Below are positions 1-12,550 of a stretch of DNA of 12,550 nt, one piece after another (the stretch's first letter is position 1; every line of letters begins with the position of its first letter). The position numbers and the translations under genes are program-made. The notes beneath the pieces were generated by a model. That model did no database searches and was not told where the DNA came from. It was given only the letters and a program-made list of their open reading frames with translations. Source of the DNA: a virus (Duplodnaviria > Heunggongvirae > Uroviricota > Caudoviricetes); IMG/VR virus record IMGVR_UViG_2609459803_000003, positions 1-12,550 of that record. The stretch is one strand, 5' to 3'.

Positions 1-327
1 GGCGGTGTTATCTGCGTGACCTGGTTCATCAATAGTACCCAGGTTAAGCACACTGACGGCACGCATATTATCAGCATCGATAAAGCAGCGGGTGCCTTCA
101 TCTGCAAGATCTTTAGAATAACGGGTAAAGTCATCGATGCTGGCAGTGGAAAGCGCACCACGGAAACGGAAGCGATTTAAATTAAATTTTTCCAGATCAT
201 GAATGCGGAAATTCTCAGGCAATGCCACAGCATCGGCACCAATCTTACTGATAATTTCATTAACACTCTGAGCAGAAATAAGGGCATGGATTTGATTAAT
301 TGCGGTTGCGTCTAAGTTCTGAGACAT
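1..327 (-). CDS. Conserved prophage early-region protein, N-terminal 109 codons only (gene continues beyond window start); tentatively YfdQ/DUF2303-like
   Basis: Minus-strand ATG at 327..325 preceded by GAGGA Shine-Dalgarno (revcomp of 333-339); open frame to window edge translating [67 protein letters not shown]... Not in ORF track because truncated by the window. Family assignment is from memory of prophage gene neighbourhoods, not a search. Confidence 0.7.
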
Positions 328-392
328 AATAAGTCCTCACTATATAAAGATATTCAGTGATGAGATAAATAATCAGTTAATTAAGAACGATA

Positions 393-755
393 TTAATGAC
401 CTGCTGCGCGGAGTTTTCCGTCAGGTTCACCGGCAAGAGTCAGTAACTGTCCCTGGTCTTCCTGCAGAATAGTCAGGCGACCACCGCGATTGACATACAT
501 CGGCGTTTCGGTGGTGTCTTCTTCGGAAATTTTCCCGCGGTTAGTCGGGCGAACATATGAGAGTTTGTGTTTGATTTTCACACGGTTCTCATCAAATGGT
601 TCGATTTCCAGGTTGAGTGAGACCTTACCTTTGGTTTTCGTGTTCATCACACCGGAAGCGACTTCACTGAGAACTGCGCCGATTTTGGTTTCAAATACGC
701 CGCCGTCCAGCTCCCCGATAAATGCCTGCACATCAGTACTGCGTTCGCTAGCCAT
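393..755 (-). CDS. Small conserved prophage protein (120 aa), function unknown (possibly YfdP-like)
   Basis: Internal start of the 226-aa track ORF: ATG at 755 has a GAGGAG Shine-Dalgarno 7 nt upstream, whereas the upstream 105 codons are Arg/Cys-rich junk (MRLSARGLRLRL...). Product MASERSTDVQAFIGELDGGVFETKIGAVLSEV... Stop TAA at 393-395. Sits 65 bp upstream of the next leftward gene, operon-like. Confidence 0.75.
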   Translation of the reverse strand: MASERSTDVQAFIGELDGGVFETKIGAVLSEVASGVMNTKTKGKVSLNLEIEPFDENRVKIKHKLSYVRPTNRGKISEEDTTETPMYVNRGGRLTILQEDQGQLLTLAGEPDGKLRAAGH

Positions 756-1354
756 TTTGCTGCTCCTCATCATATCGACCCTGCAAGGCCGATTAGTTTC
801 TCCACAAAACAGAGAAGAACACCTGCGGTGGCAGCCGCCCGGATGGATTGGTTTATGAGCCCGTCGTCCGGTGATGCTCTTCTCTGTTTTGTAAAAAGAG
901 CGGTACCAGCCGGAAGCAAGGGTACAAACTGGTACCGCCAGGACTACACACAGCATAAAGTTGTGGTGCCGGGTGCCTCCCGGTGCCTGGCGAAGGTTGC
1001 ACACCAGGCGGGTGGGTATCCACAGAAGGTCGACTGTCAGCCTCAACCTTAACCCGCGTGCGCTGAGCCGCATTCACCACAACGCTAAGGATTCTCTTTG
1101 GTTGAAAATACTTAGCTGTTATGTGCCTGTCTTTTCACCACTTCAGGCTCGGTGGTATCCTTTTAAGCCCGTATACATAAAAGGAAAATCAAATGACTTT
1201 TGATGAAAAAGAACTTGATAATGCATTAATAAAATCATCGTAACGTCGCTCTTTTCCTGTCTCAGCGACACTCAGCAGAAACAGTTCTACGAATCGGCTT
1301 TCAACATGATCGAGCGTTGTTGTTTCTGCGATGCCGACGAGTTACCTGAAAAAA

Positions 1355-1630
1355 TCAGGAAACAGTTGGCTGATGCTCTTCGAGTGCGACTTTCTGACCA
1401 ATTTTCTGAAATGTACTCTCCGAATTTGGACAAATAGAAAAAGGCCATTTCCATTCAGGGTCTGATGGAAATACTTCAGCCTGTTCCAAAGCACGGCGTA
1501 AAGAGAACACAACTCCAGCCATAATCTGATGTTTCCCATTGGTCCAGCTATCGCCGCTCTGATCTACAGGGGCGGCTATGTCGTATGACCAAACGACTTC
1601 ACAGTTATTGTTTAAAATCTGGACTTTCAT
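1355..1630 (-). CDS. Hypothetical protein (91 aa) occupying the first leftward (N-gene) position; not N-like
   Basis: ORF-track ORF 1355..1651; I prefer the internal ATG at 1630 because AGGTG lies 6 nt upstream, while the 1651 ATG has no SD and abuts a GTGCC/GGCAC hairpin (1653-1666). Product MKVQILNNNCEVVWSYDIAAPVDQSGDSWTNGKHQ... has protein-like composition and no arginine-rich motif. AT-richer than flanks. Overlapped antisense by a 43-codon plus-strand ORF (1306..1437), so the call is uncertain. Confidence 0.45.
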   Translation of the reverse strand: MKVQILNNNCEVVWSYDIAAPVDQSGDSWTNGKHQIMAGVVFSLRRALEQAEVFPSDPEWKWPFSICPNSESTFQKIGQKVALEEHQPTVS

Positions 1631-1837
1631 TTCATACACCTGCTTTAACATGAGTGCCTAGTGGCACAACATGACTCAACGAATCATCCTGGACTTCATA
1701 TGCCCCAGGCGGCTACTTCGTGGGCGTCCTGCCTGTTCGTTTTTGACATTTACTGACTGCTTACGACACATGCACCGTGTTGCAACCAGATTTTGTTGTA
1801 ATCCTGTAGTTGGTCTGGAACAAAAGATAAAATTAAA

Positions 1838-1874
1838 TTGCGAGATATGCAAGTGATATTTGCGGAATATGCAA
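1838..1874. promoter_or_regulatory. OL-like operator pair: two 15-bp sites TTGCGAGATATGCAA (1838-1852) and TTGCGGAATATGCAA (1860-1874), with a candidate leftward promoter overlapping them
   Basis: Both sites have TTGC-N7-GCAA dyad symmetry and match the 15-mer TTGCGTGATAAGCAA at 2641-2655 on the other side of the repressor gene. Centres are 22 bp apart. On the minus strand TTGCAT, a 17-nt spacer and TATCTT form a plausible sigma70 promoter pointing left. Confidence 0.5.
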
Positions 1875-1881
1875 ATTGATA

Positions 1882-1908
1882 GGTAATAAAAAGCCACCTT
1901 TCGGTGGC
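1882..1908 (-). terminator. Rho-independent terminator downstream of the repressor gene
   Basis: Minus-strand reading: GCCACC-GAAA-GGTGGC perfect 6-bp GC-rich stem with tetraloop, followed immediately by TTTTTATTACC. Located 20 bp after the repressor stop (1928). Confidence 0.7.
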
Positions 1909-1927
1909 CGATGGAAGGATATTGAGG

Positions 1928-2620
1928 TTAATTATGTCTCTTAAGGGTTTGCGACTGACTGATTAAGACCTTTCCAAAGACCATGAATCGGTGTTCGTTT
2001 TCGCTAGTAATTCCCCATTCACGGTAAATCTGGTTATCAGAAATCACCAGCAGTTTGTCAGGAATCATTTGAAGTCTTTTAACGTATATTTTGTCATCAA
2101 AACCAAAGACATATATACCATCACCATCAAACTGATTGATGCTGACATCAACGAAGATGAGATCTCCTGGCTCAATGGTTGGACACATACTGTCCCCACG
2201 AACGTTGATAACTTTGATGTGATTGGCTGGTCGTCCGCCGAACATTGATACAGCATTATCAGTTCTGTATTCGATGGCATGAATCACATCAATGACATCA
2301 CCGCCCTGGATAAGGCCATTTCCCGCACTGGCACTGATATCCAGCATTTCAATACGGAACACATCCTTCACCTGCGCAACATCCTCATCATTACTGTTTT
2401 TATATACAGTATTACTTTTGTGGGCAGAGGTAAAGAGATCAGCAATATCAACACCTAAGCTCTTGGCAATATTACTCAGTGTTTGTTCGGTAAATTGTTT
2501 TTGCTTACCCGTTTCTAAGCGCGAGATGTTCGCCGCATCTACTCCTATTGCTTCAGCGAGATCGGCGATTTTCATGTTCTTCGCTTGGCGAAGTTGTCTG
2601 ACTCGGTTTCCTATGTTCAT
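1928..2620 (-). CDS. cI: cI-like prophage repressor (N-terminal HTH_XRE, C-terminal S24 LexA-like autopeptidase domain)
   Basis: 230-aa ORF. N-terminus MNIGNRVRQLRQAKNMKIADLAEAIGVDAANISRLETGKQ is a classic XRE helix-turn-helix. C-terminal half carries the Ser/Lys dyad context of S24 peptidases (VRGDSMCPTIEPGDLIFVD ... IYVKRLQ). Divergent from a cro-like gene across an operator-bearing intergenic region. No Shine-Dalgarno before the ATG, compatible with a leaderless transcript as for lambda cI. Confidence 0.9.
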   Translation of the reverse strand: MNIGNRVRQLRQAKNMKIADLAEAIGVDAANISRLETGKQKQFTEQTLSNIAKSLGVDIADLFTSAHKSNTVYKNSNDEDVAQVKDVFRIEMLDISASAGNGLIQGGDVIDVIHAIEYRTDNAVSMFGGRPANHIKVINVRGDSMCPTIEPGDLIFVDVSINQFDGDGIYVFGFDDKIYVKRLQMIPDKLLVISDNQIYREWGITSENEHRFMVFGKVLISQSQTLKRHN

Positions 2621-2640
2621 GCGTTTATTACATTTCTTTA

Positions 2641-2717
2641 TTGCGTGATAAGCAAATCAACTTGCGCAAAATAATTGCGTGAAATAACATGCATAACGCG
2701 CAATATTTGGAGGGCGT
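2641..2717. promoter_or_regulatory. OR-like operator/promoter region between divergent repressor and cro-like genes
   Basis: Contains the 15-mer TTGCGTGATAAGCAA (2641-2655), the perfect palindrome TTGCGCAA (2662-2669), and further TTGCG / CGCAA half-sites (2675-2679, 2699-2703). Candidate rightward promoter: TTGCGC (2662-2667), 17-nt spacer, TAACAT (2685-2690), followed by GGAGG (2708-2712) and the cro-like ATG at 2718. Confidence 0.55.
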
Positions 2718-2978
2718 ATGCAATCACCATTACGAAATGTGCGTAAGGCGCATGGTTTCACTTTGCAGCATGTTGCTGCGGGTGTTCAAGTCAATCCAGC
2801 GACGTTGAGTCGTATTGAGAGGCTGGAGCAGATTCCATCTATCGAGCTTGCAGAACGTTTAGCCAATTTTTTTAAGGGTGAAGTCAGCGAAATGCAGATT
2901 CTTTATCCGGCACGTTTTCAATCTAGCCAAAACCAGAATGGGTTTAAACCACAGGAACAGGAGGTGAACCGTGGGTAA
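2718..2978 (+). CDS. cro: Cro-like HTH transcriptional regulator
   Basis: 86-aa ORF with GGAGG 6 nt upstream. N-terminal HTH signature HGFTLQHVAAGVQVNPATLSRIERLEQ. First rightward gene, divergent from the repressor. Confidence 0.8.
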   Translation: MQSPLRNVRKAHGFTLQHVAAGVQVNPATLSRIERLEQIPSIELAERLANFFKGEVSEMQILYPARFQSSQNQNGFKPQEQEVNRG

Positions 2979-3522
2979 GCATCACTGGAAAGTAGAAAAA
3001 CAGCCTGAGTGGTACGTGAAAGCTGTCAGAAAAACTATCGCAGCGTTGCCGGGGGGTTACGCTGAAGCAGCTGACTGGCTGGATGTAACAGAGAACGCAT
3101 TATTTAATCGCCTTCGTGCCGATGGCGATCAAATTTTCCCGCTGGGATGGGCAATGATTTTACAACGTGCTGGTGGAACTCACTTCATTGCTGACGCTGT
3201 GGCGCAGTCTGCAAATGGCGTCTTTGTGTCTCTTCCTGATGTCGAGGATGTGGACAACGCCGATATCAACCAACGTCTGCTGGAAGTCATTGAACAGATC
3301 GGCAGTTATTCAAAACAGATTCGTTCAGCAATTGAAGACGGTGTAGTGGAACCGCATGAGAAGACAGCAATTAACGATGAGCTGTACCTCTCAATTTCGA
3401 AGCTGCAGGAGCATGCAGCACTGGTCTACAAAATTTTTTGCATTTCAGAAAGTAATGACGCCCGCGAGTGTGCAGCTCCGGGCGCCGTGGCGTGTCGTGA
3501 CTGTGGAGAAACTAACGCATGA
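2971..3522 (+). CDS. Early regulatory protein at the cII position (183 aa; cII/YdaT-like by position, not confirmed by sequence)
   Basis: GTG start at 2971 (ORF track shows M) with GGAGGTGA SD 6 nt upstream; overlaps the cro-like stop by 8 nt. Product begins [48 protein letters not shown] and ends in a Cys-rich tail [17 protein letters not shown]. Function inferred from synteny only. Confidence 0.65.
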
Positions 3523-3857
3523 ACAGTTTAACAACACACTACCGTCGCTCGCAACTGATTGCGCTTCCTGTACCGGGTGGAAAAGCGAAGGTGGAGTATT
3601 GCTATGCAGTGAATGTACCAGGTGACAGGGAAATTGTAACCCACAGCTTTGCAGAGTGGGCTGTGGGGGATTTCAACCGGCAGAAGGAGACAGTCCTTTG
3701 CGACAAGTTAACCGCTGGTTCAAAGATCACTACGGAGTGCCCGTCAGAGTCATTCGTTGGGAGCCGGAAACACAACGGGTTATCTACCTCCGCGAAGGCT
3801 ATGAGCATGAGTGCTTCAGCCCGCTCGAACAGTTTCGTCGTAAATTCAGGGAAATAG
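3519..3857 (+). CDS. Hypothetical early protein; the 5' part is well supported, the 3' half of this frame looks non-protein-like (probable frameshift, see findings)
   Basis: ATG at 3519 overlaps the upstream stop (ATGA) and has GGAGAA 8 nt upstream. N-terminal translation [52 protein letters not shown] is protein-like; the remainder (…[22 protein letters not shown]) is Ser-rich low complexity. Confidence 0.5.
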
Positions 3858-3877
3858 AGGTCGGTCATGAGCACTAA
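3626..3877 (+). CDS. Alternative-frame ORF overlapping the 3' half of 3519..3857; probably the true C-terminal reading frame of the same gene
   Basis: Frame open from 3626 (ORF track lists it from a GTG at 3656). Translation ...[58 protein letters not shown] is protein-like. Stop TAA 3875-3877 overlaps the next gene start by 11 nt. No convincing SD of its own. Confidence 0.4.
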
Positions 3878-4484
3878 ATTAACCGGCTATGTATGGGATG
3901 GTTGCGCTGCATCAGGCATGAAATTATCCAGCGTGGCAGTTATGGCCCGCCTGGCTGATTTCAGTAATGACGAAGGTGTGTGCTGGCCATCAATTGAAAC
4001 CATTGCCCGCCAGATTGGCGCGGGGATGAGTACCGTCAGAACGGCTATCGCACGGCTGGAAGCAGAAGGCTGGTTAACGCGTAAGGCGCGTCGCCAGGGT
4101 AACCGCAATGCGTCGAATGTTTATCAGCTTAACGTTGCGAAGCTTCAGGCAGCGGCATTTTCTCAACTGTCAGATTCTGACCCGTCAAAATCTGACGCAT
4201 CAAAATCTGACCCGTCAAAATTTGATGCGTCGAAATCTGGCAAAAAAGCGGGTTTTCACCCGTCAGAATCTGGCGGGGATCCGTCAGTAAAATCAAAACA
4301 TGATCCGTCAGATAAAAAAACTTCTCGTCCGGACGCTTCGCAACCGGACACGCAGACGGATGAACAGGATTTTTTAACTCGCCATCCTGATGCGGTTGTA
4401 TTCAGCCCTAAAAAGCGCCAGTGGGGAACGCAGGATGATTTGACCTGCGCACAGTGGCTCTGGAAAAAAATCATCGCCCTGTAA
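3867..4484 (+). CDS. Replication initiator, lambda O-like (N-terminal HTH DNA-binding domain plus iteron-encoding linker); C-terminal domain apparently missing
   Basis: 205-aa ORF with GAGG 9 nt upstream. N-terminus [70 protein letters not shown] is a winged-HTH replication-initiator type. Middle encodes SDPSKSDASKSDPSKFDASKS from a tandem DNA repeat, as the lambda O gene carries ori iterons internally. Only about 45 codons follow the repeat region before the stop, abutting a rusA remnant. Confidence 0.8.
   Translation: MSTKLTGYVWDGCAASGMKLSSVAVMARLADFSNDEGVCWPSIETIARQIGAGMSTVRTAIARLEAEGWLTRKARRQGNRNASNVYQLNVAKLQAAAFSQLSDSDPSKSDASKSDPSKFDASKSGKKAGFHPSESGGDPSVKSKHDPSDKKTSRPDASQPDTQTDEQDFLTRHPDAVVFSPKKRQWGTQDDLTCAQWLWKKIIAL
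4171..4320. repeat. Iteron array / candidate origin of replication embedded in the O-like gene
   Basis: Four tandem 15-bp units (TCTGACCCGTCAAAA 4176-4190, TCTGACGCATCAAAA 4191-4205, TCTGACCCGTCAAAA 4206-4220, TTTGATGCGTCGAAA 4221-4235), then further CCGTCAG motifs at 4260, 4281 and 4305, and an A-run (4311-4320). GACGCATCA (4194-4202) and TGATGCGTC (4224-4232) are exact inverse complements. Confidence 0.65.
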
Positions 4485-4485
4485 C

Positions 4486-4665
4486 CGGATCCGCGATCTG
4501 GACAACTATAACAAGGCGCTGTTTGACGCCCTGACCCACGCGGGTGTGTGGGAAGACGACAGTCAGGTGAAAAGAATGCTGGTGGAGTGGGGACCGGTTA
4601 TCCCGGAAGGGAAGGTCGAGATCACTATCAGTAAGTACGAGAAACCGGCGGGTGCAGCCGCCTGA
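4486..4665 (+). pseudogene. rusA: rusA (Holliday-junction resolvase) 3' remnant lacking start codon and N-terminal half
   Basis: Frame open only from the stop at 4441-4443, with no start codon before the internal Met. Translation RIRDLDNYNKALFDALTHAGVWEDDSQVKRMLVEWGPVIPEGKVEITISKYEKPAGAAA resembles the C-terminal part of E. coli RusA as I recall it (…[28 protein letters not shown]…). Stop TGA 4663-4665. Confidence 0.7.
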
Positions 4666-4684
4666 TTAAGAGGAGAAACGAAGT

Positions 4685-5482
4685 ATGAATAATCTGATGG
4701 TTATTGATGGTATTGAAGTTCGTCGTGATGCTTATGGGCGTTACAGCCTGAACGATCTGCACAGGGCTGCCGGTTCTCTGGATAAGCATAAGCCTGCATT
4801 CTGGCTCCGCAATGAGCAAACTGAACGTTTAATAAGCGAGTTGCAAATTTGCAACTCGGTCAATATAGAGCCAGTTAACGTTATTCGTGGCGGAAATAAC
4901 CAGGGGACGTATGTCTGCAAAGAACTGGTGTATGCCTATGCAATGTGGATCAGCCCGTCATTCCATCTGAAGGTGATCCGTACTTTCGATATGGTAACCA
5001 GCACACCTGAAAAATTATCCGGGCAGGCTGCTGACAAGATGCAGGCTGGCGTGATCCTGCTGGACTTTATGCGCCGGGAATTAAACCTGTCTAACTCATC
5101 AGTGCTTGGAGCCTGTCAGAAGCTTCAGGAGGCTGTTGGCTTACCGAATCTGGCACCGCGCTATGCCATTGATGCTCCTGCTGATGCACACGATGGCTCA
5201 AGTCGCCCGACACTGTCACTGAGTGCACTGCTGAAACAGTATGGTATCCGCCTGACGGCTAATCAGGCATATCACCAGATGGTGAAGCTGGGGATCGTCG
5301 AGCAGCGCGAACGATACAGCCGTACCGCGATTAACAACATCAAAAAATTCTGGTCGCTGACAGCGAAAGGCTGCATGTTCGGCAAGAACATCACCAGTCC
5401 CGCAAATCCGCGCGAGACGCAGCCGCATTTCTTCGAGTCCCGATTCCCTGAGCTGTTAAAGCTGCTCGATACCGTTCATTGA
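4685..5482 (+). CDS. KilA-N domain protein (antirepressor-like), C-terminal domain of unknown function
   Basis: 265-aa ORF with AAGAGGAGAAA SD before the ATG. N-terminal 100 aa (…YGRYSLNDLHRAAG…KPAFWLRNEQTERLI…VIRGGNNQGTYVCKELVYAYAMWISPSFHLKVIRTFD) matches the KilA-N signature from memory. Confidence 0.8.
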   Translation: MNNLMVIDGIEVRRDAYGRYSLNDLHRAAGSLDKHKPAFWLRNEQTERLISELQICNSVNIEPVNVIRGGNNQGTYVCKELVYAYAMWISPSFHLKVIRTFDMVTSTPEKLSGQAADKMQAGVILLDFMRRELNLSNSSVLGACQKLQEAVGLPNLAPRYAIDAPADAHDGSSRPTLSLSALLKQYGIRLTANQAYHQMVKLGIVEQRERYSRTAINNIKKFWSLTAKGCMFGKNITSPANPRETQPHFFESRFPELLKLLDTVH

Positions 5483-5483
5483 G

Positions 5484-6479
5484 GTGACCGTGAGAGCACT
5501 ACTGACCCCTGAAATTGCCCCGCGTATGGGGATCGTTTTGTTCAGACCAGGTTCAGAGCTGATGCCCCTGTTTATGCAGGGGCGTGTCCTGCTGGAGCCT
5601 GAGCCGGAACGTTATTCATCTTTCGCCAGTGGTGCCGTTCCGGCGGCATCACAACCGCTGGCGGATGATCCTGCCGTTCGGGCCGTGTTCCGCAATGAGG
5701 CAGTGATCCGTCGTGCTGGTGGCGTGGAATGTCTTGAAAGCTGGTTACTTCGTGAAAAAGGCTGCCAGTGGCCTCATTCCGACTGGCACAGCGAGAACAT
5801 GACCACAATGCGACACGCTCCGGGCGCAATCCGTCTGTGCTGGCACTGCGATAACCAGCTGCGCGATCAGTTCACGGAACGGCTGGAATCAATGGCAACG
5901 GATAACTGTGCCCGCTGGGTGTTGTCTGTTGTGCGTCGGGATCTTGGTTTTGATGACAGTCACGTTGTGACAATGCCGGAACTGTGCTGGTGGCTGGTTC
6001 GTAATGATCTGGCGGATGCCTTACCGGAAAGCGCAGCCCGTAAGGCACTGAGATTACCGAAGCCTGTTGTGCAGGCGGTCACCCGGGAAAGTGACCTTGT
6101 ACCTTCGGTTCCTGCCACCAGCATTATCCAGGATAAAGCGAAAAAGGTGCTGGCGCTGAAAGTGGATCCGGAGTCGCCGGAGTCTTTTATGTTACGCCCA
6201 AAACGCCGCCGCTGGGTTAATGAAAAGTACACGCGCTGGGTTAAGACACAGCCGTGTGCATGTTGTGGAAAGCCTGCTGATGATCCCCACCACCTGATAG
6301 GTCACGGTCAGGGTGGAATGGGTACAAAAGCGCATGACCTCTTTGTGTTGCCTTTGTGCAGAAAGCATCACGACGAGCTGCATGCGGATACCGTGGCATT
6401 TGAAGAGAAGTATGGCTCCCAACTGGAGCTGATATTTCGTTTTATCGATCGCGCGCTGGCGATTGGTGTGTTGGCCTGA
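5484..6479 (+). CDS. DUF968-like protein (YdfU family) with C-terminal HNH-like Cys/His motif
   Basis: 331-aa ORF. C-terminus …WVKTQPCACCGKPADDPHHLIGHGQGGMGTKAHDLFVLPLCRKHHDELHAD has a C-x-CC…HH…H…C…HH…H zinc-finger/HNH-like pattern. Start is GTG at 5484 (track shows M), 1 nt after the upstream stop with no clear SD, so the start is uncertain (translational coupling or a downstream ATG at 5526). Sits immediately upstream of Q, as ydfU does in Qin-type prophages. Confidence 0.65.
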   Translation: MTVRALLTPEIAPRMGIVLFRPGSELMPLFMQGRVLLEPEPERYSSFASGAVPAASQPLADDPAVRAVFRNEAVIRRAGGVECLESWLLREKGCQWPHSDWHSENMTTMRHAPGAIRLCWHCDNQLRDQFTERLESMATDNCARWVLSVVRRDLGFDDSHVVTMPELCWWLVRNDLADALPESAARKALRLPKPVVQAVTRESDLVPSVPATSIIQDKAKKVLALKVDPESPESFMLRPKRRRWVNEKYTRWVKTQPCACCGKPADDPHHLIGHGQGGMGTKAHDLFVLPLCRKHHDELHADTVAFEEKYGSQLELIFRFIDRALAIGVLA

Positions 6480-6496
6480 TTTGGTGGAGAAAGTTG

Positions 6497-6862
6497 ATGC
6501 GTGATATTCAGATGGTTCTGGAGCGTTGGGGAGCATGGGCGGCGAGTGATAGTTCTGGAGTAGACTATTCGCCTATAGCTGCTGGGTTTAAGGGGCTTCT
6601 TCCCTACACAAGCAAAACACGTCAGGCTTGTTCAGATAGTGATGCATTAATTATTGAAGGTTGTCTTGCTCGTCTAAAGCAAAAAAAGCCAGATGAGCAC
6701 TCGCTGCTTGTGGCACATTATTTATACAGAATATCCAAGCGTAAGATTGCAAAGGTGCGTGGAAAGGATGAAAAATTGGTACGCATAGAAATACAACTAG
6801 CCGAAGGATTTATTGATGGTTGCCTTTCAATGTTGGATGTTAACCTTGAAATGGACGCTTAG
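6497..6862 (+). CDS. Q: Late-gene antiterminator Q
   Basis: ATG at 6497 with GGAG 7 nt upstream (the track ORF begins 3 nt earlier at a TTG). Product MRDIQMVLERWGAWAASDSSGVDYSPIAAGFKGL…CLARLKQKKPDEHSLLVAHYLY…IQLAEGFIDGCLSMLDVNLEMDA closely resembles the Qin-type Q (QuuQ) as I recall it. Lies upstream of the lysis cassette. Confidence 0.75.
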   Translation: MRDIQMVLERWGAWAASDSSGVDYSPIAAGFKGLLPYTSKTRQACSDSDALIIEGCLARLKQKKPDEHSLLVAHYLYRISKRKIAKVRGKDEKLVRIEIQLAEGFIDGCLSMLDVNLEMDA

Positions 6863-6869
6863 GGTTGCA

Positions 6870-6897
6870 CAGGTTGGCCCCATATGAGGCCAACCTG
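6870..6897. terminator. Perfect 10-bp inverted repeat hairpin between convergent Q and cargo cassette (bidirectional terminator-like, no U-tract)
   Basis: CAGGTTGGCC (6870-6879), loop CCATATGA, GGCCAACCTG (6888-6897). Sits exactly between the Q stop (6860-6862) and the minus-strand stop at 6898-6900. No T-run on either side, so function as an intrinsic terminator is uncertain. Confidence 0.4.
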
Positions 6898-7347
6898 TCA
6901 CAAGTGGGGGAAGATTTTTCGTAACACTAACCAACACCTTCCGAAGGTATATAGCGAAATTATAAGGGAGGATAAGCCTAACAGTATGAATAGGAAATCA
7001 ATAGGTTTGCCCGCAACAATAACATCATCAGGTAGAAACATCGCTATCAATGGAAATATACATGCGACGATGAGAGTTAACCCTGTTGAAAGTAATCTAT
7101 TTACCAGAGTTGGTAACACGTTGTTTTGCTTAAGGGCATTAATTGCTCCTTCCTTATCGCTGTTTGCACTACTAAATATAGATATTGCAGCCAGAACAAA
7201 ACCAAACAGGATGCCTGATATAGTCGAGAGCACCCCCGCTGTTGTGAGTACGTCAGCATGCTTCATCGGTTTAAACAGTTTTGTCGCTGCATAGGTCAAC
7301 AGAATCCAGAGGACGCATTTCCAGAGAAAAGTGGCTAATTCTCTCAT
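6898..7347 (-). CDS. Small inner-membrane protein with four predicted transmembrane helices (RexB-like topology); second gene of the cargo cassette
   Basis: Track ORF 6898..7359; the ATG at 7347 has GGAGGA 4-5 nt upstream, the ATG at 7359 has none. Hydrophobic segments by eye: LATFLWKCVLWILLTYAATKLF, VLTTAGVLSTISGILFGFVLAAISIFS, LSTGLTLIVACIFPLIAMFL, IDFLFILLGLSSLIISLYTF. AT-rich. Starts 10-22 nt after the stop of the upstream 313-aa gene. Confidence 0.7.
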   Translation of the reverse strand: MRELATFLWKCVLWILLTYAATKLFKPMKHADVLTTAGVLSTISGILFGFVLAAISIFSSANSDKEGAINALKQNNVLPTLVNRLLSTGLTLIVACIFPLIAMFLPDDVIVAGKPIDFLFILLGLSSLIISLYTFGRCWLVLRKIFPHL

Positions 7348-7368
7348 TGTGTCCTCCATGCTTGGTTA

Positions 7369-8310
7369 TTAGTCTCTGCTAGCGAGCTCATACTGTGCAA
7401 GATAGTTCGCGTTATCAATTTTAGCAGATATCATCGCCGTTCTGATATCAGAATCGGATGGATAACCGCTTTTGACAATGATTGTCTTTGTACTGACCAA
7501 TACTTGGTCAAGTAGACTTTTGGGCGTTCTATTGGATGGCTCTGTTACATCAATTTTTTTAATTTTTAGACCTCCAGAACCTTTTGGAAAAAGTTCAAGT
7601 AGTTCCTTAATAGCATCGGTGACAGAAGTTTTTAGATAGTTAAACCCTTGTTTTTTCGGGCGAATCCGACCTCGCATATTTAATCTTAGATGCGACCCGC
7701 CCATACCAACAACCATGTCAATAATTTCATTAGCTAAAGGGTTTTTAATCTTATAATTAGCTTTGTTAAAGTTTCTTGGAGCAGCAACTATAAGATCGAA
7801 ACTACGTAGGATATTTCCGTCCTCAAGCAGTTCCTTCATGCTCTCTTGTTTCCAAATGGCTTCAAAAGTGACGCTTTTTAAATCAGTTTTGTTATACAAA
7901 ATGAATGCCAGATCATTTACTTTGGGCCCTATATGGTTGAGGGTCATAGCTAATAAGTCCGTTTCGTAGTAATAGATAAAATATGTTCTTTCAACTACAG
8001 AATCTTTATCATTTAAAGGAATTGTTCTCTCACTACCTGTAGCATCCTCGATGAACGGTAGTAGGCATTCCCTTCTCCACGATACGTAACCAAAGTAACA
8101 TTGCAGTGTGGTATCTTTTTGAAGAATAACTAACTTTAACCCTCGATTTGGGGTGTCTGTTGTGTAAGTTATTGGAAAAGTTACAGTATCTGCTGTGGTC
8201 ATTTGCTCAAAGGCTAGTTTTGCAGCAGATGTGCCATCTTTTTTGCTTCCATTACCAGTGAAAAAACCAACTCTCACTCGCCTGGTTTTATTCTTATTTT
8301 CTGTACTCAT
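7369..8310 (-). CDS. Hypothetical soluble protein (313 aa), first gene of the antisense cargo cassette; no recognisable catalytic motif
   Basis: Long minus-strand ORF with protein-like composition: MSTENKNKTRRVRVGFFTGNGSKKDGTSAAKLAFEQM…ERTYFIYYYETDLLAMTLNHIGPKVNDLAFILYNKTD…IIDMVVGMGGSHLRLNMRGRIRPKK… No Walker A, HNH, DEDD or similar motif seen by eye. Double stop TAATAA. AT-rich against GC-richer phage flanks. Weak SD (GGA) before the ATG at 8310. Confidence 0.75.
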   Translation of the reverse strand: MSTENKNKTRRVRVGFFTGNGSKKDGTSAAKLAFEQMTTADTVTFPITYTTDTPNRGLKLVILQKDTTLQCYFGYVSWRRECLLPFIEDATGSERTIPLNDKDSVVERTYFIYYYETDLLAMTLNHIGPKVNDLAFILYNKTDLKSVTFEAIWKQESMKELLEDGNILRSFDLIVAAPRNFNKANYKIKNPLANEIIDMVVGMGGSHLRLNMRGRIRPKKQGFNYLKTSVTDAIKELLELFPKGSGGLKIKKIDVTEPSNRTPKSLLDQVLVSTKTIIVKSGYPSDSDIRTAMISAKIDNANYLAQYELASRD

Positions 8311-8433
8311 TATCGATCCGAAATAATTTTAGCAACCGTGTGAAAAATACAACAAAAAAAAGAGGAAATCATTAGCGCGGTCCGCAAAAAACATTGTAAT
8401 CTGTTAAGAGTGGTTACTTCGCCACACAGCTTA

Positions 8434-8460
8434 AACCCGCCGTCGAGCGGGTTTTGTCGT
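8434..8460 (+). terminator. Rho-independent terminator upstream of the lysis genes (tR'-like)
   Basis: AACCCGC (8434-8440), loop CGTCGA, GCGGGTT (8447-8453), then TTTTGTCGTTTCTG. Plus-strand orientation, about 150 bp upstream of the holin start, as lambda tR' precedes S. Confidence 0.6.
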
Positions 8461-8606
8461 TTCTGTGGCTGGGGATTCGTTGGTCCTGGCCTATTCCGCA
8501 GTTCTCCATCGGTTCGGCTTCTTTGATGTTTCCGCTTCTGATTTGCGGTACATGATGTTCCCTCAATTTGCACCTGCTGTATCAGCGAGGTGAGAGATAA
8601 CTACAA

Positions 8607-8933
8607 ATGCCTCATAACCCAAATACCTGGCTGGAGTTGGTCCAGAGCTGGTGGCGTGGAGACACACCGCTGGGCGCAGTGATTATGTCGATCGTTATGG
8701 CTGGCTTGCGCATTGCCTATTTTGGCGGTGGTGGTGGCTGGAAACGAAAAACGCTCGAGATTTTGCTCTGTGGTGCTCTGACGCTGACTTTTGCATCCGC
8801 TCTTGAGTATGTCGGATGGCCTAAATCTCTTTCTGTTGCCATTGGTGGCGGCGTTGGGCTGATCGGGGTCGATGCTATTCGTGGGGCTGCAATGAGAGTA
8901 ATCGGTAATAAGTTTGGTGGCTCTAAGGAGTAA
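8607..8933 (+). CDS. S: Holin (lambda S-like class I, three predicted TM segments)
   Basis: 108-aa ORF immediately upstream of the endolysin. Three hydrophobic segments (LGAVIMSIVMAGLRIAYF; TLEILLCGALTLTFASAL; LSVAIGGGVGLIGVDAI) and a charged C-terminus, same length class as lambda S. Confidence 0.8.
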   Translation: MPHNPNTWLELVQSWWRGDTPLGAVIMSIVMAGLRIAYFGGGGGWKRKTLEILLCGALTLTFASALEYVGWPKSLSVAIGGGVGLIGVDAIRGAAMRVIGNKFGGSKE

Positions 8934-8936
8934 TTT

Positions 8937-9413
8937 ATGCAGGTACTAAATTCCCAGCGTAAAGCTTTCCTGGATATGGTGGCATGGTCAGAAGGAACGG
9001 ATAACGGGCGACAACCGACACGTAACCACGGTTATGACGTTATTGTCGGTGGCGAACTCTTCACTGATTACTCCGATCACCCTCGCAAACTTGTCACGCT
9101 AAACCCGAAACTCAAATCAACAGCTGCAGGCCGTTATCAACTTCTTTCACGTTGGTGGGATGCTTACCGCAAGCAGCTTGGGCTGAAAGACTTCTCTCCC
9201 AGAAGCCAGGACTCAGTGGCATTACAGCAGATTAAAGAGCGTGGCGCTTTACCGATGATTGATCGCGGCAATATTCGTCAGGCAATCGACCGTTGCAGCA
9301 ATATCTGGGCGTCTTTACCTGGTGCAGGTTACGGTCAGTATGAACATAAAATTGGCGACCTGATTTCCCGGTTTAAAGAGGCTGGTGGGGTGGTAAATGA
9401 AGCTGAGATATAA
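8937..9413 (+). CDS. R: Endolysin, lambda R-type lytic transglycosylase
   Basis: 158-aa product MQVLNSQRKAFLDMVAWSEGTDNGRQPTRNHGYDVIVGGELFTDYSDHPRKLVTLNPKLKSTAAGRYQLLSRWWDAYRKQLGLKDFSP… is near-identical over most of its length to lambda R as I recall it, including the catalytic-Glu context WSEGTD. Confidence 0.95.
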   Translation: MQVLNSQRKAFLDMVAWSEGTDNGRQPTRNHGYDVIVGGELFTDYSDHPRKLVTLNPKLKSTAAGRYQLLSRWWDAYRKQLGLKDFSPRSQDSVALQQIKERGALPMIDRGNIRQAIDRCSNIWASLPGAGYGQYEHKIGDLISRFKEAGGVVNEAEI

Positions 9414-9789
9414 GCTGGTTATTGTTGCCTTCTTTGTTACCGTCATTGGTTCCTTCATCTGGTCTGCCGGGCATTACTACAGCAAATATCTGCACGAAAA
9501 GGAGCGTGCTGATGAGGCTATACGAAATGCTGAATCAGCAACTGCCATTACCCGTAACGTTCTGCAATCACTGCAAATCATCAATACAGTTATAGAGGCT
9601 AACCAGCATGCAAAACAGCAGATTGCACTGGAGTCACAGAAAACCCAGGAAGATATCAAAGTGGCTGTTGCGGATGATGATTGTGCTTCACGTCCTGTGC
9701 CTGCTGCCGCTGCTGACCGGTTGCGGAAGTACGCGGACAGTTTACGTGAACACTCCGGCGGTACCACTGCCAGCCAGCTTGACTTCTGA
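9397..9789 (+). CDS. Rz: Rz-type i-spanin (inner-membrane spanin subunit)
   Basis: ATG at 9397 overlaps the endolysin 3' end. N-terminal signal-anchor MKLRYKLVIVAFFVTVIGSFIW followed by a charged, helix-prone periplasmic region. Position and architecture are typical; at 130 aa it is shorter than lambda Rz (153 aa). Confidence 0.8.
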   Translation: MKLRYKLVIVAFFVTVIGSFIWSAGHYYSKYLHEKERADEAIRNAESATAITRNVLQSLQIINTVIEANQHAKQQIALESQKTQEDIKVAVADDDCASRPVPAAAADRLRKYADSLREHSGGTTASQLDF

Positions 9790-9922
9790 TACACCTGTAC
9801 CGTTTATACCCAACCCACTGACGTATGGTGCAAGTCTTGATTTGAATGTAAGTTTGTTATCCGCGTTGGCTCAATGTAATAGGGATAAGTCTGATATCAG
9901 AATCATTGATAATCAAAATTGA
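9674..9922 (+). CDS. Rz1: Rz1-type o-spanin lipoprotein, starting inside Rz in the +1 frame and extending beyond the Rz stop
   Basis: Within track ORF 9608..9922; start placed at ATG 9674 (or 9677), giving MMIVLHVLCLLPLLTGCGS… with lipobox LLTG|C. Mature part is Pro-rich (TPAVPLPASLTSDTPVPFIPNPLTY) like lambda Rz1. The ORF continues 133 nt past the Rz stop into AT-rich sequence. Confidence 0.65.
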   Translation: MMIVLHVLCLLPLLTGCGSTRTVYVNTPAVPLPASLTSDTPVPFIPNPLTYGASLDLNVSLLSALAQCNRDKSDIRIIDNQN

Positions 9923-10125
9923 TGTATATTTTTATCGTCATGTAGATAACGAACAAGGTATTCCTCTGATACGTTTCGTTGAATACAGGTCATGGGTAGG
10001 CATTGCAATATCGCTTCGAAATTATCTGTGATAATGCTCTTAATTTTGAATGTATGTATTTGGGAAAAGAGATAAAGTAATAGTCTAATTAATGGAGATA
10101 TCCACAAAACACAAAAGGGACTATT

Positions 10126-10632
10126 ATGCGACCAGATCAATTTTTCTATCCAGATACTTTTACCTTTAATTCATCCACCTATTATGGTCAACGTGACTCA
10201 TCTAAAGGTCGATTGTATATTCCTATTGAAAGTGACTTATGTCCATTTAATATCGGCGATATCATTGTGCAAAAAATGGTCGACAGGGAAAGACTATTTG
10301 AAGTGCTTGATTACGAGGTGCAAATTAGTCTCGAGGCTGGTTGCCCTGGCTACTCACATTTGGCGGTATTGATAGTGAATGCATTGGATGTAAAAGAGAA
10401 GCCGAAGCAGATTACGACCCATTTGACGTTTAACGGTGCTATTAATGCTGGTGGTGATTTTCAAGCCGGTAATGACAATTCGATCACAAAGAATATAACC
10501 ATTCAACAACTACATGATGCTATAGAGCATTGCAATGATCCAGAGGTTAAAAGCCTTTGGCAAAAGCTATTGGAAAATCCGACGTTTGCTTCAATTGCTT
10601 CAATATTGGCAAAAAGTGCTTTAGGACAGTAA
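10126..10632 (+). CDS. Hypothetical protein (168 aa), AT-rich orphan cargo gene between lysis and packaging modules
   Basis: ORF with AAAGGGA before the ATG. Product MRPDQFFYPDTFTFNSSTYYGQRDSSKGRLYIPIESDLCPFNIGDIIVQKMVDRERLFEVLDYEVQ… has no TM segments and no motif I recognise. Preceded by about 200 bp of AT-rich non-coding DNA and followed by its own terminator. Confidence 0.7.
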   Translation: MRPDQFFYPDTFTFNSSTYYGQRDSSKGRLYIPIESDLCPFNIGDIIVQKMVDRERLFEVLDYEVQISLEAGCPGYSHLAVLIVNALDVKEKPKQITTHLTFNGAINAGGDFQAGNDNSITKNITIQQLHDAIEHCNDPEVKSLWQKLLENPTFASIASILAKSALGQ

Positions 10633-10640
10633 TTCATCAA

Positions 10641-10666
10641 GCCCCATTCAATATGGGGTTTTTATG
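10641..10666 (+). terminator. Rho-independent terminator after the 168-aa cargo gene
   Basis: CCCCAT (10642-10647), loop TCAAT, ATGGGG (10653-10658), then TTTTTTAT; 9 nt after the stop at 10630-10632. Confidence 0.7.
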
Positions 10667-10689
10667 CTTATTACAAAGAGTTTTCTTCA

Positions 10690-11040
10690 ATGCCACCACG
10701 AACTCCAAAAGCCTGCCGTGTTCGCGGGTGCCGCCGTACCACCACTGACCCGTCAGGTTATTGCGAAAGCCACAAAAGCGAAGGCTGGAAGCAATACAAG
10801 CCAGGACAATCCCGTCATCAGCGCGGCTACGGTTCGAAGTGGGACGTTATCCGCGCGCGTGTGCTGAAACGTGACAAAGGTTTATGTCAGTTATGTCTGC
10901 GCGCTGGTGTGGTGCGTGAGGCGAAAACTGTTGACCACATCATCCCTAAAGCGCATGGCGGCACTGATGCCGACTGTAATCTGCAGAGTCTGTGCTGGCC
11001 GTGTCATAAGGCGAAGACGGCCCGTGAACGGCTTAAGTGA
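10690..11040 (+). CDS. HNH endonuclease (packaging-associated, adjacent to small terminase)
   Basis: 116-aa product with HNH motif …CQLCLRAGVVREAKTVDHIIPKAHGGTDADCNLQSLCWPCHKAKT… Placement next to the terminase small subunit is typical of HK97-like cos phages. Confidence 0.9.
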   Translation: MPPRTPKACRVRGCRRTTTDPSGYCESHKSEGWKQYKPGQSRHQRGYGSKWDVIRARVLKRDKGLCQLCLRAGVVREAKTVDHIIPKAHGGTDADCNLQSLCWPCHKAKTARERLK

Positions 11041-11066
11041 TAATAATTCTCAACTGTCTGAGGGGA

Positions 11067-11127
11067 GGGGCGGGTCAAATCTCTGCGGCCTGACGTCTTC
11101 AGGACTGCCCGCCCCATCGTTTTTTTA
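11067..11127 (+). other. GC-rich compound hairpin followed by a T7 run: terminator after the HNH gene and/or candidate cos/packaging site
   Basis: GGGGCGGG (11067-11074) pairs with CCCGCCCC (11108-11115), enclosing a nested CCTGA/TCAGG hairpin (11089-11103), followed by TTTTTTT (11120-11127). Located between the HNH and small terminase genes, where HK97-like genomes place their ends. Confidence 0.45.
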
Positions 11128-11165
11128 TACCCGCGAAAAATGAAATTTAACCAGGAGTGCCGCAT

Positions 11166-11486
11166 ATGGCTGGAACGGCGGGGCGTTCCGGGCGTCGCCC
11201 TAAGCCAACGGCGCGCAAGGCGCTGGCCGGAAACCCCGGCAAGCGAGCCCTGAACAAAGATGAACCTGTTTTTACGCCCATCAAAGGTGTTGAGCCACCG
11301 GAGTGGTTCGCTGAAGAAGAGCTTCCTCTCCCCGAACAGAAAAAAATCGAAAGAGTCCTGCGTGATGTCGGACTCTCCCGCACCCAGGCCAAAGCATTCA
11401 TGGCCGGGGGCTATAGCGCACTGTCCCTGCGCGACGCTGAGGATGTGGGCTCTGCACTGAATGCACTGAAAAATCTGAACTTCTAA
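11166..11486 (+). CDS. Terminase small subunit, P27 family
   Basis: ATG at 11166 with AGGAG 8 nt upstream (track ORF starts at a GTG at 11157). Product MAGTAGRSGRRPKPTARKALAGNPGKRALNKDEPVFTPIKGVEPPEWF… matches the P27-family N-terminal signature from memory. Confidence 0.85.
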   Translation: MAGTAGRSGRRPKPTARKALAGNPGKRALNKDEPVFTPIKGVEPPEWFAEEELPLPEQKKIERVLRDVGLSRTQAKAFMAGGYSALSLRDAEDVGSALNALKNLNF

Positions 11487-11500
11487 TCAGGAGAAATACG

Positions 11501-12550
11501 ATGGCGGTTGATATTAAAGATGTCGAACAGGTCGCGCAGGAGCTGCAGCAGAAGTTTGACGACTTCAAAGCAAAGAACGACAAGCGCGTGGATGCGATTG
11601 AGCAGGAAAAAGGCAAGCTTGCCGGGCAGGTGGAAACCCTGAACGGGAAACTCAGCGAGCTGGAAAATCTCAAAAGCGACCTTGAAAAAGAGCTGCTTGA
11701 GCTGAAACGTCCGGCTGGTGGAGCGCAAAATAAACTGGCCACCGAGCATAAAGAGGCGTTTGTGGGCTTCCTGCGTAAAGGCCGTGAAGACGGTCTGCGC
11801 GATCTGGAGCGTAAGGCATTGCAGGTGGGTACCGATGAAGACGGTGGCTACGCCGTGCCGGAAGAACTGGATCGCAACATTCTTAACCTGCTGAAAGATG
11901 AAGTGGTGATGCGTCAGGAAGCCACGGTGATCACCGTTGGCGGTTCCGACTACAAAAAACTGGTGAATCTGGGCGGTACGGCTTCCGGATGGGTGGGGGA
12001 AACGGATACGCGATCCCAGACTGCCACCTCCAGACTGGAGCTGATTGAACCTCTCATGGGGGAAATTTACGGCAACCCGCAGGCTACCCAGAAAATGCTG
12101 GACGATGCCTTCTTCAACGTGGAGGCCTGGATCAACAGCGAGCTGGCAACCGAATTTGCCGAACAGGAAGAAATTGCCTTTACCTCAGGCGATGGCACCA
12201 AGAAGCCGAAAGGGTTCCTGGCGTATGAATCCACTGATGAAACCGACAAGGTCCGGGCGTTCGGCAAACTTCAGCATATTGTATCCGGCGAAGCGACCGC
12301 GGTGACCGCAGACGCCATTATCAAACTGATTTACACGCTGCGTAAGGCACACCGCACTGGCGCGAAGTTCATGATGAACAACAACAGCCTGTTTGCCATC
12401 CGTCTGCTTAAAGACAGCGAGGGTATTCGCCTTGGTTGCTCATACCAGGCCTCCGGTATTCTAAAGGGGAAAATAAGAGTGCGTTGCGAGAGTGCTGATG
12501 CTTTTTTAAACGTTAAGCATAGTCGGCGACAGCAGGAGGATTATTCTTAA
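11501..12550 (+). CDS. Major capsid protein, HK97 family (with N-terminal coiled-coil delta domain); 3' end aberrant, probably truncated or disrupted
   Basis: AGGAGA SD 7 nt before the ATG. N-terminal 100 aa is coiled-coil-like (MAVDIKDVEQVAQELQQKFDDFKAKNDKRVDAIEQEKGKLAGQVETLNGKLSELENLKSDLEKELLEL). The body contains …GAKFMMNNNSLFAIRLLKDSEG…, resembling the HK97 gp5 segment …HNIALLKDNEGRYIFGG… After about position 12435 the translation (CSYQASGILKGKIRVRCESADAFLNVKHSRRQQEDYS) no longer resembles capsid and stops at the window end. Confidence 0.75.
   Translation: MAVDIKDVEQVAQELQQKFDDFKAKNDKRVDAIEQEKGKLAGQVETLNGKLSELENLKSDLEKELLELKRPAGGAQNKLATEHKEAFVGFLRKGREDGLRDLERKALQVGTDEDGGYAVPEELDRNILNLLKDEVVMRQEATVITVGGSDYKKLVNLGGTASGWVGETDTRSQTATSRLELIEPLMGEIYGNPQATQKMLDDAFFNVEAWINSELATEFAEQEEIAFTSGDGTKKPKGFLAYESTDETDKVRAFGKLQHIVSGEATAVTADAIIKLIYTLRKAHRTGAKFMMNNNSLFAIRLLKDSEGIRLGCSYQASGILKGKIRVRCESADAFLNVKHSRRQQEDYS

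Follow-up and report, generated by a model that had tools for sequence, protein, structure and literature searches.

Location and layout of the element

The stretch of DNA analysed here, referred to as the window (12,550 nt, positions 1 to 12,550 of the IMG/VR virus record IMGVR_UViG_2609459803_000003), comprises the immunity and early regions of a lambdoid prophage of Escherichia coli that is similar to SfV and e14. Between the first leftward (pL) gene (1355-1651) and yfdP (393-755, with its ATG at 755 and yfdQ as the next gene) lies a region that a preliminary description had characterized as GC-rich, apparently non-coding DNA with clustered short direct repeats, and for which it had put forward a structured non-coding RNA, a cluster of protein-binding sites or a decayed gene as candidates. 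We consider it probable that most of this GC-rich stretch is an RNA gene of the STnc100/PasD family, located on the minus strand within the pL operon. The putative element and the features that follow it on the same strand are listed below.

893..1105, minus strand: structured small RNA (sRNA) of the STnc100/PasD family (ymfH type), including linker and terminator and with a predicted 3' end at about 893
1075..1083, minus strand: 5' strand of helix P1, GUUGUGGUG, which pairs with 968-960 and is followed by junction J1/2 (AAU) at 1074-1072
1056..1071, minus strand: hairpin P2, GCGGCUCAGCGCACGC, in which a 5-bp stem with a single A bulge closes the 5-nt loop UNNGC
1044..1050, minus strand: 5' strand of the pseudoknot, AAGGUUG, complementary to the P4 loop CAACCUU (999-993)
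986..1008, minus strand: hairpin P4, CCUGGUG-UGCAACCUU-CGCCAGG, the loop of which contains the 3' strand of the pseudoknot
969..983, minus strand: invariant hairpin P5, CCGGG-AGGCA-CCCGG, which abuts the 3' strand of P1 and holds two GGTGCC copies
960..968, minus strand: 3' strand of P1, CACCACAAC, which contains the third GGTGCC copy
939..959, minus strand: single-stranded linker, UUUAUGCUGUGUGUAGUCCUG, possibly a seed region or a site of processing
893..938, minus strand: intrinsic terminator, in which GCGGUACCAG (938-929) pairs with CUGGUACCGC (909-900), followed by CUCUUUUU
797..893, minus strand: long hairpin of the leader, the arms of which (892-868 and 828-804) form a stem of some 25 bp
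756..796, minus strand: proximal 5' untranslated region (UTR) of yfdP, with a small hairpin at 793-774 and, ahead of the ATG, GAGGAG (769-764) as Shine-Dalgarno sequence

The 751 bases around the element are 99.6% identical to the sequence of E. coli RM10466 and 99.2% identical to that of phage SfV, and the element was found at a coverage of at least 80% in 1,829 of 5,426 complete E. coli genomes. It adjoins the repressor side in one direction and the early-left genes in the other in five phage lineages (SfV, ST64B, phiES15, a Klebsiella phage and K-12 e14), and the order repressor, small gene, element, early-left genes recurs across the phages compared. The DNA of K-12 e14 is 88% identical over a conserved 44-nt block (described below), the core, the terminator and the leader hairpin, with xisE-intE directly after; YmfI and YmfJ of e14 show no homology to the neighbouring open reading frames (ORFs) of the window. 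The yfdP gene of CPS-53 in K-12 was considered as a source of data and set aside; its homology to the window starts only some 22 nt upstream of the ATG, so CPS-53 lacks the element.

Match to the STnc100 family

A covariance-model scan, one of the checks suggested in the preliminary description, indeed yielded a full-length match to the Rfam family STnc100 (RF02076) on the minus strand (1105 to 891, model positions 1-206 of 206, 44.0 bits), with an E-value of 6.7e-8 in a search of 1.4 kb and of 6e-7 for the whole window. The match was seen only in this E-value scan; a scan of the window at the Rfam gathering thresholds returned nothing, because 44.0 bits is below the gathering cut-off (GA) of 47 bits for RF02076. 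Loci below the threshold were found at the same position in Cronobacter phiES15 (40.6 bits), SfV (39.5), SfIV (38.4), 118970_sal3 (37.5), ST64B (35.1), the Klebsiella prophage (35.0) and K-12 e14 (29.2). The 19-mer CACCGGGAGGCACCCGGCA (985-967) occurs without a mismatch in the window, in at least 120 viral contigs of IMG/VR and in the Rfam consensus, and the 5'-side junction sequence of the family, GGUGAAU, is found exactly at 1078-1072.

From the IMG/VR contigs with the 19-mer and from the phage loci we took 46 cores, dereplicated on k-mers, and built a covariance model of our own (R1). It scored the window, which was part of the training set, at 76.6 bits, ST64B at 73.5, sal3 at 72.1, e14 at 58.5 and the interior variant of mEp460 at 23.5 bits; the interior variant of cdtI gave no match to this model. 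In mEp460 (2746-2893) and cdtI (around 2740-2870), at the place that corresponds to 940-1090 of the window, the interior of the RNA is swapped for unrelated sequence, but both P1 strands (GUUGUGGUG/CACCACAAC) are retained and so are the terminator, the long hairpin and the leader of yfdP. The core looks like a cassette that can be exchanged within the frame of P1.

Some 18 relatives have a promoter of the form TTGACA/TTGAAA, a spacer of 17-18 nt and TAAATT at a fixed distance, such that the start falls at P1. Tandem arrays of STnc100-type units with a spacing of about 253 nt and a terminator for each unit were observed in three IMG/VR contigs (L028, 366-996; L041, 1811-2335; L078, 4464-5453). 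Each unit in L028 is preceded by TACTGAATAAATAAACAGATA, a LexA-box-like CTG-N10-CAG sequence, which suggests that arrays of STnc100-type RNA may be under SOS control.

Eleven transcribed copies of STnc100 have been reported in EDL933, one of them confirmed by Northern blotting (PMC5331693), and STnc100 overlaps the Hfq-bound sRNA EcOnc27, located 3' of stx2B (PMC12711010, PMC4104026). The PasD sRNAs are Hfq-dependent and related to STnc100 (PMC8550237, bioRxiv 10.64898/2026.05.13.724894), and PasD2 was abundant among CsrA-associated chimeras (bioRxiv 10.64898/2026.08.12.744399). The location known for the family is a moron site in the late region, downstream of Q/PR' and near stx, nanS and lysis genes; the copies of the window, SfV, ST64B, phiES15, the Klebsiella phage and e14 lie elsewhere. 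Since every copy described so far maps to the late region, the early-left location is a new aspect of the family. The element is probably a divergent, 'ymfH-type' member of STnc100/PasD, of which we found neither the position nor the subtype described in the literature. ARAGORN detected no tRNA or tmRNA gene in the window, and a tRNA-like reading of the core, in which the 7-bp P1 stacked on the 5-bp P5 recalls an acceptor-T minihelix, was discarded on account of its misfitting loops.

Conserved fold of the RNA core

The fold obtained with RNAalifold for the 46 relatives (including the window) and the structure drawn by hand agree on a 7-bp P1, J1/2 AAU, P2 and a P5 that abuts P1. Paired cells amounted to 85.3% for these relatives versus 76.6% for shuffles, and the covariation score was 0.287 versus 0.131 for shuffles (none of 500 reached 0.287; controls with a slid structure gave 0.05-0.15). 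Double changes were found in 13 of the 22 pairs. For instance, one pair of P1 is GC in 27 and AU in 15 of the 46 sequences and the next is UA in 18 and CG in 12; three pairs of P2 flip from C-G to G-C between the canonical and the window subtype. The P4 stem varies yet stays paired, as UCUGG/CCAGA in ST64B and CCUGG/CCAGG in the window. The alignment with relatives that had been proposed before thus reveals compensatory changes, and these lie in the RNA helices.

The loop of P4 has a complementarity of at least 6 bp to a strand located mostly 2-5 nt after P2 in 38 of the 46 relatives. This pairing occurs in at least 14 different complementary sequence versions and has a mean length of 6.4 bp, versus 4.4 bp for shuffled loops. 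We found no mention of a pseudoknot in the STnc100 literature cited here. The data show a conserved pseudoknotted fold that is supported by covariation. Together with the full-length STnc100 match, the covarying P1 and P2 and the RNA 3' ends of the K-12 homologue (see below), it bears out the first of the three candidates named at the outset, a structured non-coding RNA.

The repeats that had drawn attention to the region find their place in this fold. The GGTAC(C/A) copies (GGTACC at 902-907 and 931-936, GGTACA at 921-926) and the GGTGCC copies (965-970, 972-977 and 982-987) are located where the preliminary description had put them, and their clustering exceeds chance by far: GGTACM, counted on both strands, occurs 16 times in the window versus 6.2 times expected (none of 200 shuffles reached 16) with five sites within 35 bp, and three of the nine GGTGCC sites of the window fall inside 24 bp. 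Their nature of direct repeats had to be given up, the copies being arms of inverted repeats and hairpins of the minus strand. On that strand the GGTGCC copies read GGCACC and lie inside CACCGGGAGGCACCCGGCACC, which makes up the P5 hairpin and the 3' strand of P1, and the GGTACC copies make up the arms of the intrinsic terminator, the outer two being part of a perfect 10-bp inverted repeat (900-909 with 929-938). Another inverted repeat, of 25 nt, joins 804-828 to 868-892. The CCGGA/TCCGG inverted repeat reported before is present as well, one base away from the positions given for it (839-843 and 867-871). As the repeats are RNA helices with covarying partners, the second candidate, a cluster of protein-binding sites, is unsupported. 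The high GC content applies to 756 to about 1100 (0.51-0.56) and not to the remainder, since 1051-1350 has a value of 0.43, like the flanks.

Terminator, linker and RNA 3' ends

The intrinsic terminator, which holds all three GGTAC(C/A) copies, has an 11-bp stem in the minimum free energy (MFE) fold. A scan for consensus promoters and terminators missed it (900-938) because its loop is longer than 8 nt, and reported only one promoter-like site, on the plus strand. The window, ST64B, sal3 and phiES15 share the linker, UGCUGUGUG(U/A)AG(U/A)C, which is followed among them by three unrelated hairpin-plus-U-tract terminators. The constancy of the linker before unrelated terminators argues that selection acts on the linker as well as on termination at this very spot. 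A boxA-like sequence, CGCUCUUUUUACAA, after the terminator raised the idea of a boxA/nut site, which was dropped because SfV and SfIV have GUCCUUUUU at that site.

Published Term-seq data of K-12 (supplements of PMC7815308) contain three minus-strand RNA 3' ends in the e14 homologue of the element:

1201195, minus strand: RNA ending in ...CUGGUACCGCCCUUUUU, with the final U of the terminator's U-tract (window position about 893), 34,193 reads
1201257, minus strand: RNA ending in ...CACCACAACUUUA, 4 nt after P1 (window position about 956), 29,484 reads
1201423, minus strand: RNA ending in ...GUGGUGAAAAGACAGGCAC, a strong 'orphan' end (window position about 1123), 109,099-285,136 reads, in all three conditions

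The ends at 1201257 and 1201423 were scored as not Rho-dependent (PMC7815308). It follows from these 3' ends that the minus strand is transcribed in the K-12 lysogen, that the terminator of e14 is functional and that a species consisting of the core only is present.

Downstream of the terminator, the leader hairpin encloses two inner hairpins (CCGGA/UCCGG and GCGG/CCGC). Its 5' arm includes the U-tract of the terminator and the hairpin therefore would form only in read-through RNA. The fold of 750-900 has a free energy of -62.7 kcal/mol (z -5.7), and none of 200 shuffles was as stable. The hairpin is nearly invariant in five phages, among which SfV, SfIV, mEp460 and cdtI, has 83% identity and one compensatory change (G-C to A-U) in ST64B, and is also found upstream of xisE in e14.

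Proposed mechanism

In the model that we propose, the compact core consists of a closing helix P1 of 7-9 bp, J1/2 AAU, P2, a variable middle part and P4, the loop of P4 forms a pseudoknot with the strand just after P2, and P5 stacks on P1. Transcripts that originate from pL, from a promoter active in the lysogen or from a weak promoter of the element itself would stop at the 900-938 terminator. Termination would release an RNA of about 200 nt and keep yfdP and the genes up to xis-int silent, unless it is overcome at induction. By homology with STnc100, EcOnc27 and PasD, the released RNA may act in trans, with the linker and the terminator as the Hfq-binding and base-pairing part and the core as a domain for stability or protein binding. 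Read-through RNA is predicted to fold into the 25-bp hairpin at 893-797, which could serve as a processing site of the RNase III type ahead of yfdP.

Several observations weigh against this proposal. The Rfam score is 3 bits under the curated cut-off. The Hfq data come from canonical copies and extend to the ymfH-type subtype by homology; the canonical copies moreover sit among the late genes, downstream of Q and stx, and not in the pL operon. A search for targets of the linker within the window produced none beyond chance. The best candidate for a promoter of the element itself (AAGACA, 17 nt, TATTTT at 1133-1105; score 8.5 of 12) is not convincing, and its -10 element is not retained in the Klebsiella phage. 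In Reg-Seq experiments an active start upstream of ymfH was seen only with gentamicin and in one replicate (PMC12133099), which fits such a weak promoter. The MFE fold of the window (-85.8 kcal/mol, z -2.7) pairs the pseudoknot strand AAGGUUG locally with UCGACCUU, and an alternative pairing thus exists, as AAGGUUGA pairs locally in this fold. Finally, the e14 copy, from which the experimental data stem, has a mutated P5 (CCGGG-GGCA-CCCGA).

Alternative explanations

The third candidate, a decayed gene, could be specified as a twice-frameshifted ymfH protein gene at 770-1080 (minus strand) in which the RNA features are incidental. It has annotation on its side: in RefSeq (PGAP) the equivalent of 770-1080 in RM10466 is labelled 'hypothetical protein, frameshifted', and a translated search with ORF 853-1080 returns the 103-aa YmfH (b1142) of K-12 e14 and similar entries, YmfH being encoded by a named K-12 gene relative to which the window has two frame changes. 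Over-expression of a ymfH clone moreover gave the trigger phenotype of retron-Sen2, the clone being reported as a trigger of its toxin RcaT (bioRxiv 10.1101/2020.06.22.160242). A hit in a translated search was what the preliminary description would have taken as refuting a functional non-coding region, and nominally YmfH is such a hit, yet the matched ORF is not conserved among relatives. Read from a shared GTG, it varies from 16 to 103 aa over 27 loci (103 aa in three and 75 aa in 16 of them), the 103-aa versions compared (e14 and L102) use different internal frames, and in divergent relatives that keep the RNA fold only 16-57 aa are left (19 in ST64B, 27 in phiES15). The GTG lies inside helix P1 and has no Shine-Dalgarno sequence in the 14 nt upstream, and the K-12 e14 ymfH (5070-5381 of its contig, L133) overlies the same RNA element, terminator and hairpin; a terminator used in vivo falls within the ORF. 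Substitutions are compensatory for RNA helices. Pfam gave no match for the YmfH-like ORF, and all YmfH homologues found derive from enterobacterial prophage DNA carrying the same element. The PHROG matches to ORFs over the RNA fall on both strands and annotators disagree on strand and frame, for which reason we rejected these matches as real families; 40 records sampled across the ranking were labelled 'hypothetical protein' or 'ymfH' or were unannotated, and never RNA. With the ORF unconserved, its GTG in P1 without a Shine-Dalgarno sequence and an intrinsic terminator inside it, ymfH and its 'pseudogene' copies most likely result from a spurious ORF called on top of an RNA element, and a true decayed gene appears quite improbable.

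The sole rival that keeps real weight is a cis-acting leader, i.e. an attenuator that senses a ligand or a protein, or a put-like antitermination RNA, in which the core gates the 900-938 terminator and is not an sRNA acting in trans. It would account for the terminator that always follows the core at 20-50 nt, with genes of an antiterminated operon behind it, for a conservation that resides in the core rather than in the tail, for the aptamer-like combination of a pseudoknot and invariant loops, and for the two mutually exclusive partners of AAGGUUG in the window; phages of the SfV type lack an annotated N-like protein, and the YmfT iModulon contains ymfH together with xisE and intE as co-regulated genes. 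Against it stand the many members that are free-standing, with a strong promoter starting at P1 and a terminator of their own, or that form tandem arrays (spacing of about 253 nt) without genes in between, the accumulation of canonical copies as discrete Hfq-associated RNAs in lysogens, and the lack of an obvious antiterminator pairing between the core and the 5' arm of the terminator. The put element of HK022, with two stems in about 70 nt directly downstream of PL/PR (PMC9378689), has another architecture, which led us to drop the put-like antiterminator. Altogether we regard a cis-acting leader as unlikely. An explanation of the repeats as DNA sites (operators bound by a phage regulator, or signals for recombination or packaging) would fit the clustering of the short repeats and the ACCAC-N10-GTGGT inside the predicted promoter of the 44-nt block, and this block by itself might be an operator. 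The GGTGCC and GGTACC copies, however, fall exactly on both sides of covarying RNA helices, their spacing is not that of a helical repeat, and ST64B and phiES15 have unrelated terminator hairpins in place of the GGTACC hairpin, which makes this explanation very improbable indeed.

Within the preferred explanation, a minus-strand RNA gene of the STnc100/PasD family, the retron-trigger effect of the ymfH clone might come from the RNA and not from a protein. A more far-reaching version, which we put forward only as a speculation with a slight chance of being right, is that STnc100 and ymfH-type RNAs, rather than being base-pairing sRNAs of the ordinary sort, are compact pseudoknotted folds of which the invariant P2 and P5 loops bind a conserved partner from the cell or the phage, with a secondary role for the variable tail, that ymfH is this RNA and that the triggering of RcaT is an effect of the RNA.

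Relation to known RNA elements

The element shares with STnc100 (RF02076; EcOnc27/sRNA103 of E. coli O157) the full-length model match, the identical 19-mer CACCGGGAGGCACCCGGCA, the parts P1, AAU, P2, P4, P5, linker and intrinsic terminator, the P4-loop pseudoknot and lambdoid prophages as carriers. It differs in P2, where compensatory changes have led to GCGG...CGC in the window versus CCCC...GGGG, in its early-left position by the immunity region, apparently without a strong promoter of its own, and in its annotation as a protein gene or pseudogene. PasD1 and PasD2 of enteropathogenic E. coli (EPEC), compared here by description only, are likewise encoded by prophages and Hfq-dependent, and belong to the same broad family given the structure and ancestry they are reported to share with STnc100 (bioRxiv 10.64898/2026.05.13.724894). 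Unlike the element of the window, they are located near Q and lpxR in the late region, and RIL-seq targets and CsrA chimeras are available for them.

DicF of Qin resembles the element in being an sRNA encoded close to the repressor, within the early operon of a defective lambdoid prophage and ahead of a gene for host killing or division. It is likewise made from a polycistronic transcript and has a 3' end of the terminator type; it is, however, only 53 nt long and lacks a structured core. The Rfam model of DicF (RF00039) reached 15.7 bits at 898-952, where it covers only the terminator hairpin, and 28.5 bits in e14 at a cut-off of 48 bits, so that the two are not homologous. The tL terminators and the RNase III hairpin of the N leader of lambda offer a parallel for a terminator and a long hairpin in the pL transcript before the delayed-early genes, xis and int; they show no sequence similarity to the element, which has no nut site (boxA-boxB). 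From HK022 put, the element is set apart by the described architecture (PMC9378689), as it has a five-helix core of about 125 nt, about 750 nt downstream of the operator region (around 1830-1890).

If the RNA gene is real, ymfH of K-12 becomes an RNA element plus a terminator that guards xis/int, and the STnc100 family, a very abundant one, is extended to a second conserved position in lambdoid prophages. A pseudoknot would be added to the structure model of the family, and a function in binding a partner would become testable. The ymfH result of the retron-trigger screen would be worth re-reading, and a widespread annotation error, in which an RNA element is labelled as a protein gene or pseudogene, would be exposed.

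Other features of the region

The remaining features around the element are the following.

1117..1160, both strands: conserved 44-nt block
1173..1205, minus strand: weak AT-rich hairpin with a U-run, a putative rho-independent terminator transferred by alignment from the SfV annotation
1193..1437, plus strand: small ORF, 81 aa in relatives (phrog_3311; PHROG match with an E-value of 1e-55)
1928..2620, minus strand: cI-type repressor gene
2718..2978: cro

On its minus strand the 44-nt block contains a hairpin, ACCACCGAGCCUGAAGUGGU (1156-1137), and the equivalent of the K-12 RNA 3' end at about 1123. On its plus strand it contains a predicted promoter, TTCACC (1134-1139), 16 nt, TGgTATCCT (-10 at 1156-1161), with a score of 9 out of 12 plus TG. 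The block is identical in e14 and 95-100% identical in Klebsiella phages and Rac-SA53 despite different flanks, and unrelated small genes of the plus strand begin at 33-36 nt from it in the window and SfV, in e14 (ymfI) and in the Klebsiella phage. A rightward promoter in the block is probable. In K-12, Term-seq located plus-strand 3' ends and a region of Rho termination beyond ymfI (PMC7815308). The putative terminator at 1173-1205 was not detected in the consensus scan.

The absence of a coding frame, claimed in the preliminary description for the whole region, holds for 756-1190; 1193-1354 is part of the plus-strand ORF of 81 aa that is intact in close relatives. In the window a deletion of 1 bp at 1225/1226 cuts this ORF to 16 aa (1193-1243) and leaves a frame at 1306-1437. 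RM10466, SfV and three IMG/VR loci have the unbroken ORF, and the deletion is private to the window in comparison with all seven close relatives; it could be a true mutation or, as it falls in a short A/T run, an error of sequencing. A protein search with the 81-aa ORF returned only near-identical E. coli entries, two seemingly 'divergent' matches being indel variants. With only near-identical homologues, the ORF is at most putatively coding.

To the left of the terminator of the repressor gene (1909-1892), two copies of TTGCATAT(T/C)(C/T)CGCAA were found within 1830-1890. They look like oL operators and may mark the region of the pL promoter, from which the operon of the element would be transcribed. 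On the right-hand side, near an antirepressor-like gene to the right of ymfL, Rfam matches to isrK above the threshold are present in SfV (6043-6231), cdtI (5140-5216) and ST64B (19-95), and SfV has a match to C4 antisense RNA in that area as well. As the window has neither isrK nor C4 matches, its right arm differs there from that of SfV.

Within the ymfL-like ORF of the window (2971-3522), the minus-strand sequence of 3454-3479 is identical to the e14 sequence that ends at the Term-seq 3' end 1203751 (minus strand). This end is antisense to ymfL and by far the most abundant of the e14 region, with 14.5 to 50.5 million reads in the three conditions. Rfam gave no match at 3454-3479. From the sequence identity, a very abundant antisense RNA ending near 3454 is probably encoded in the window.

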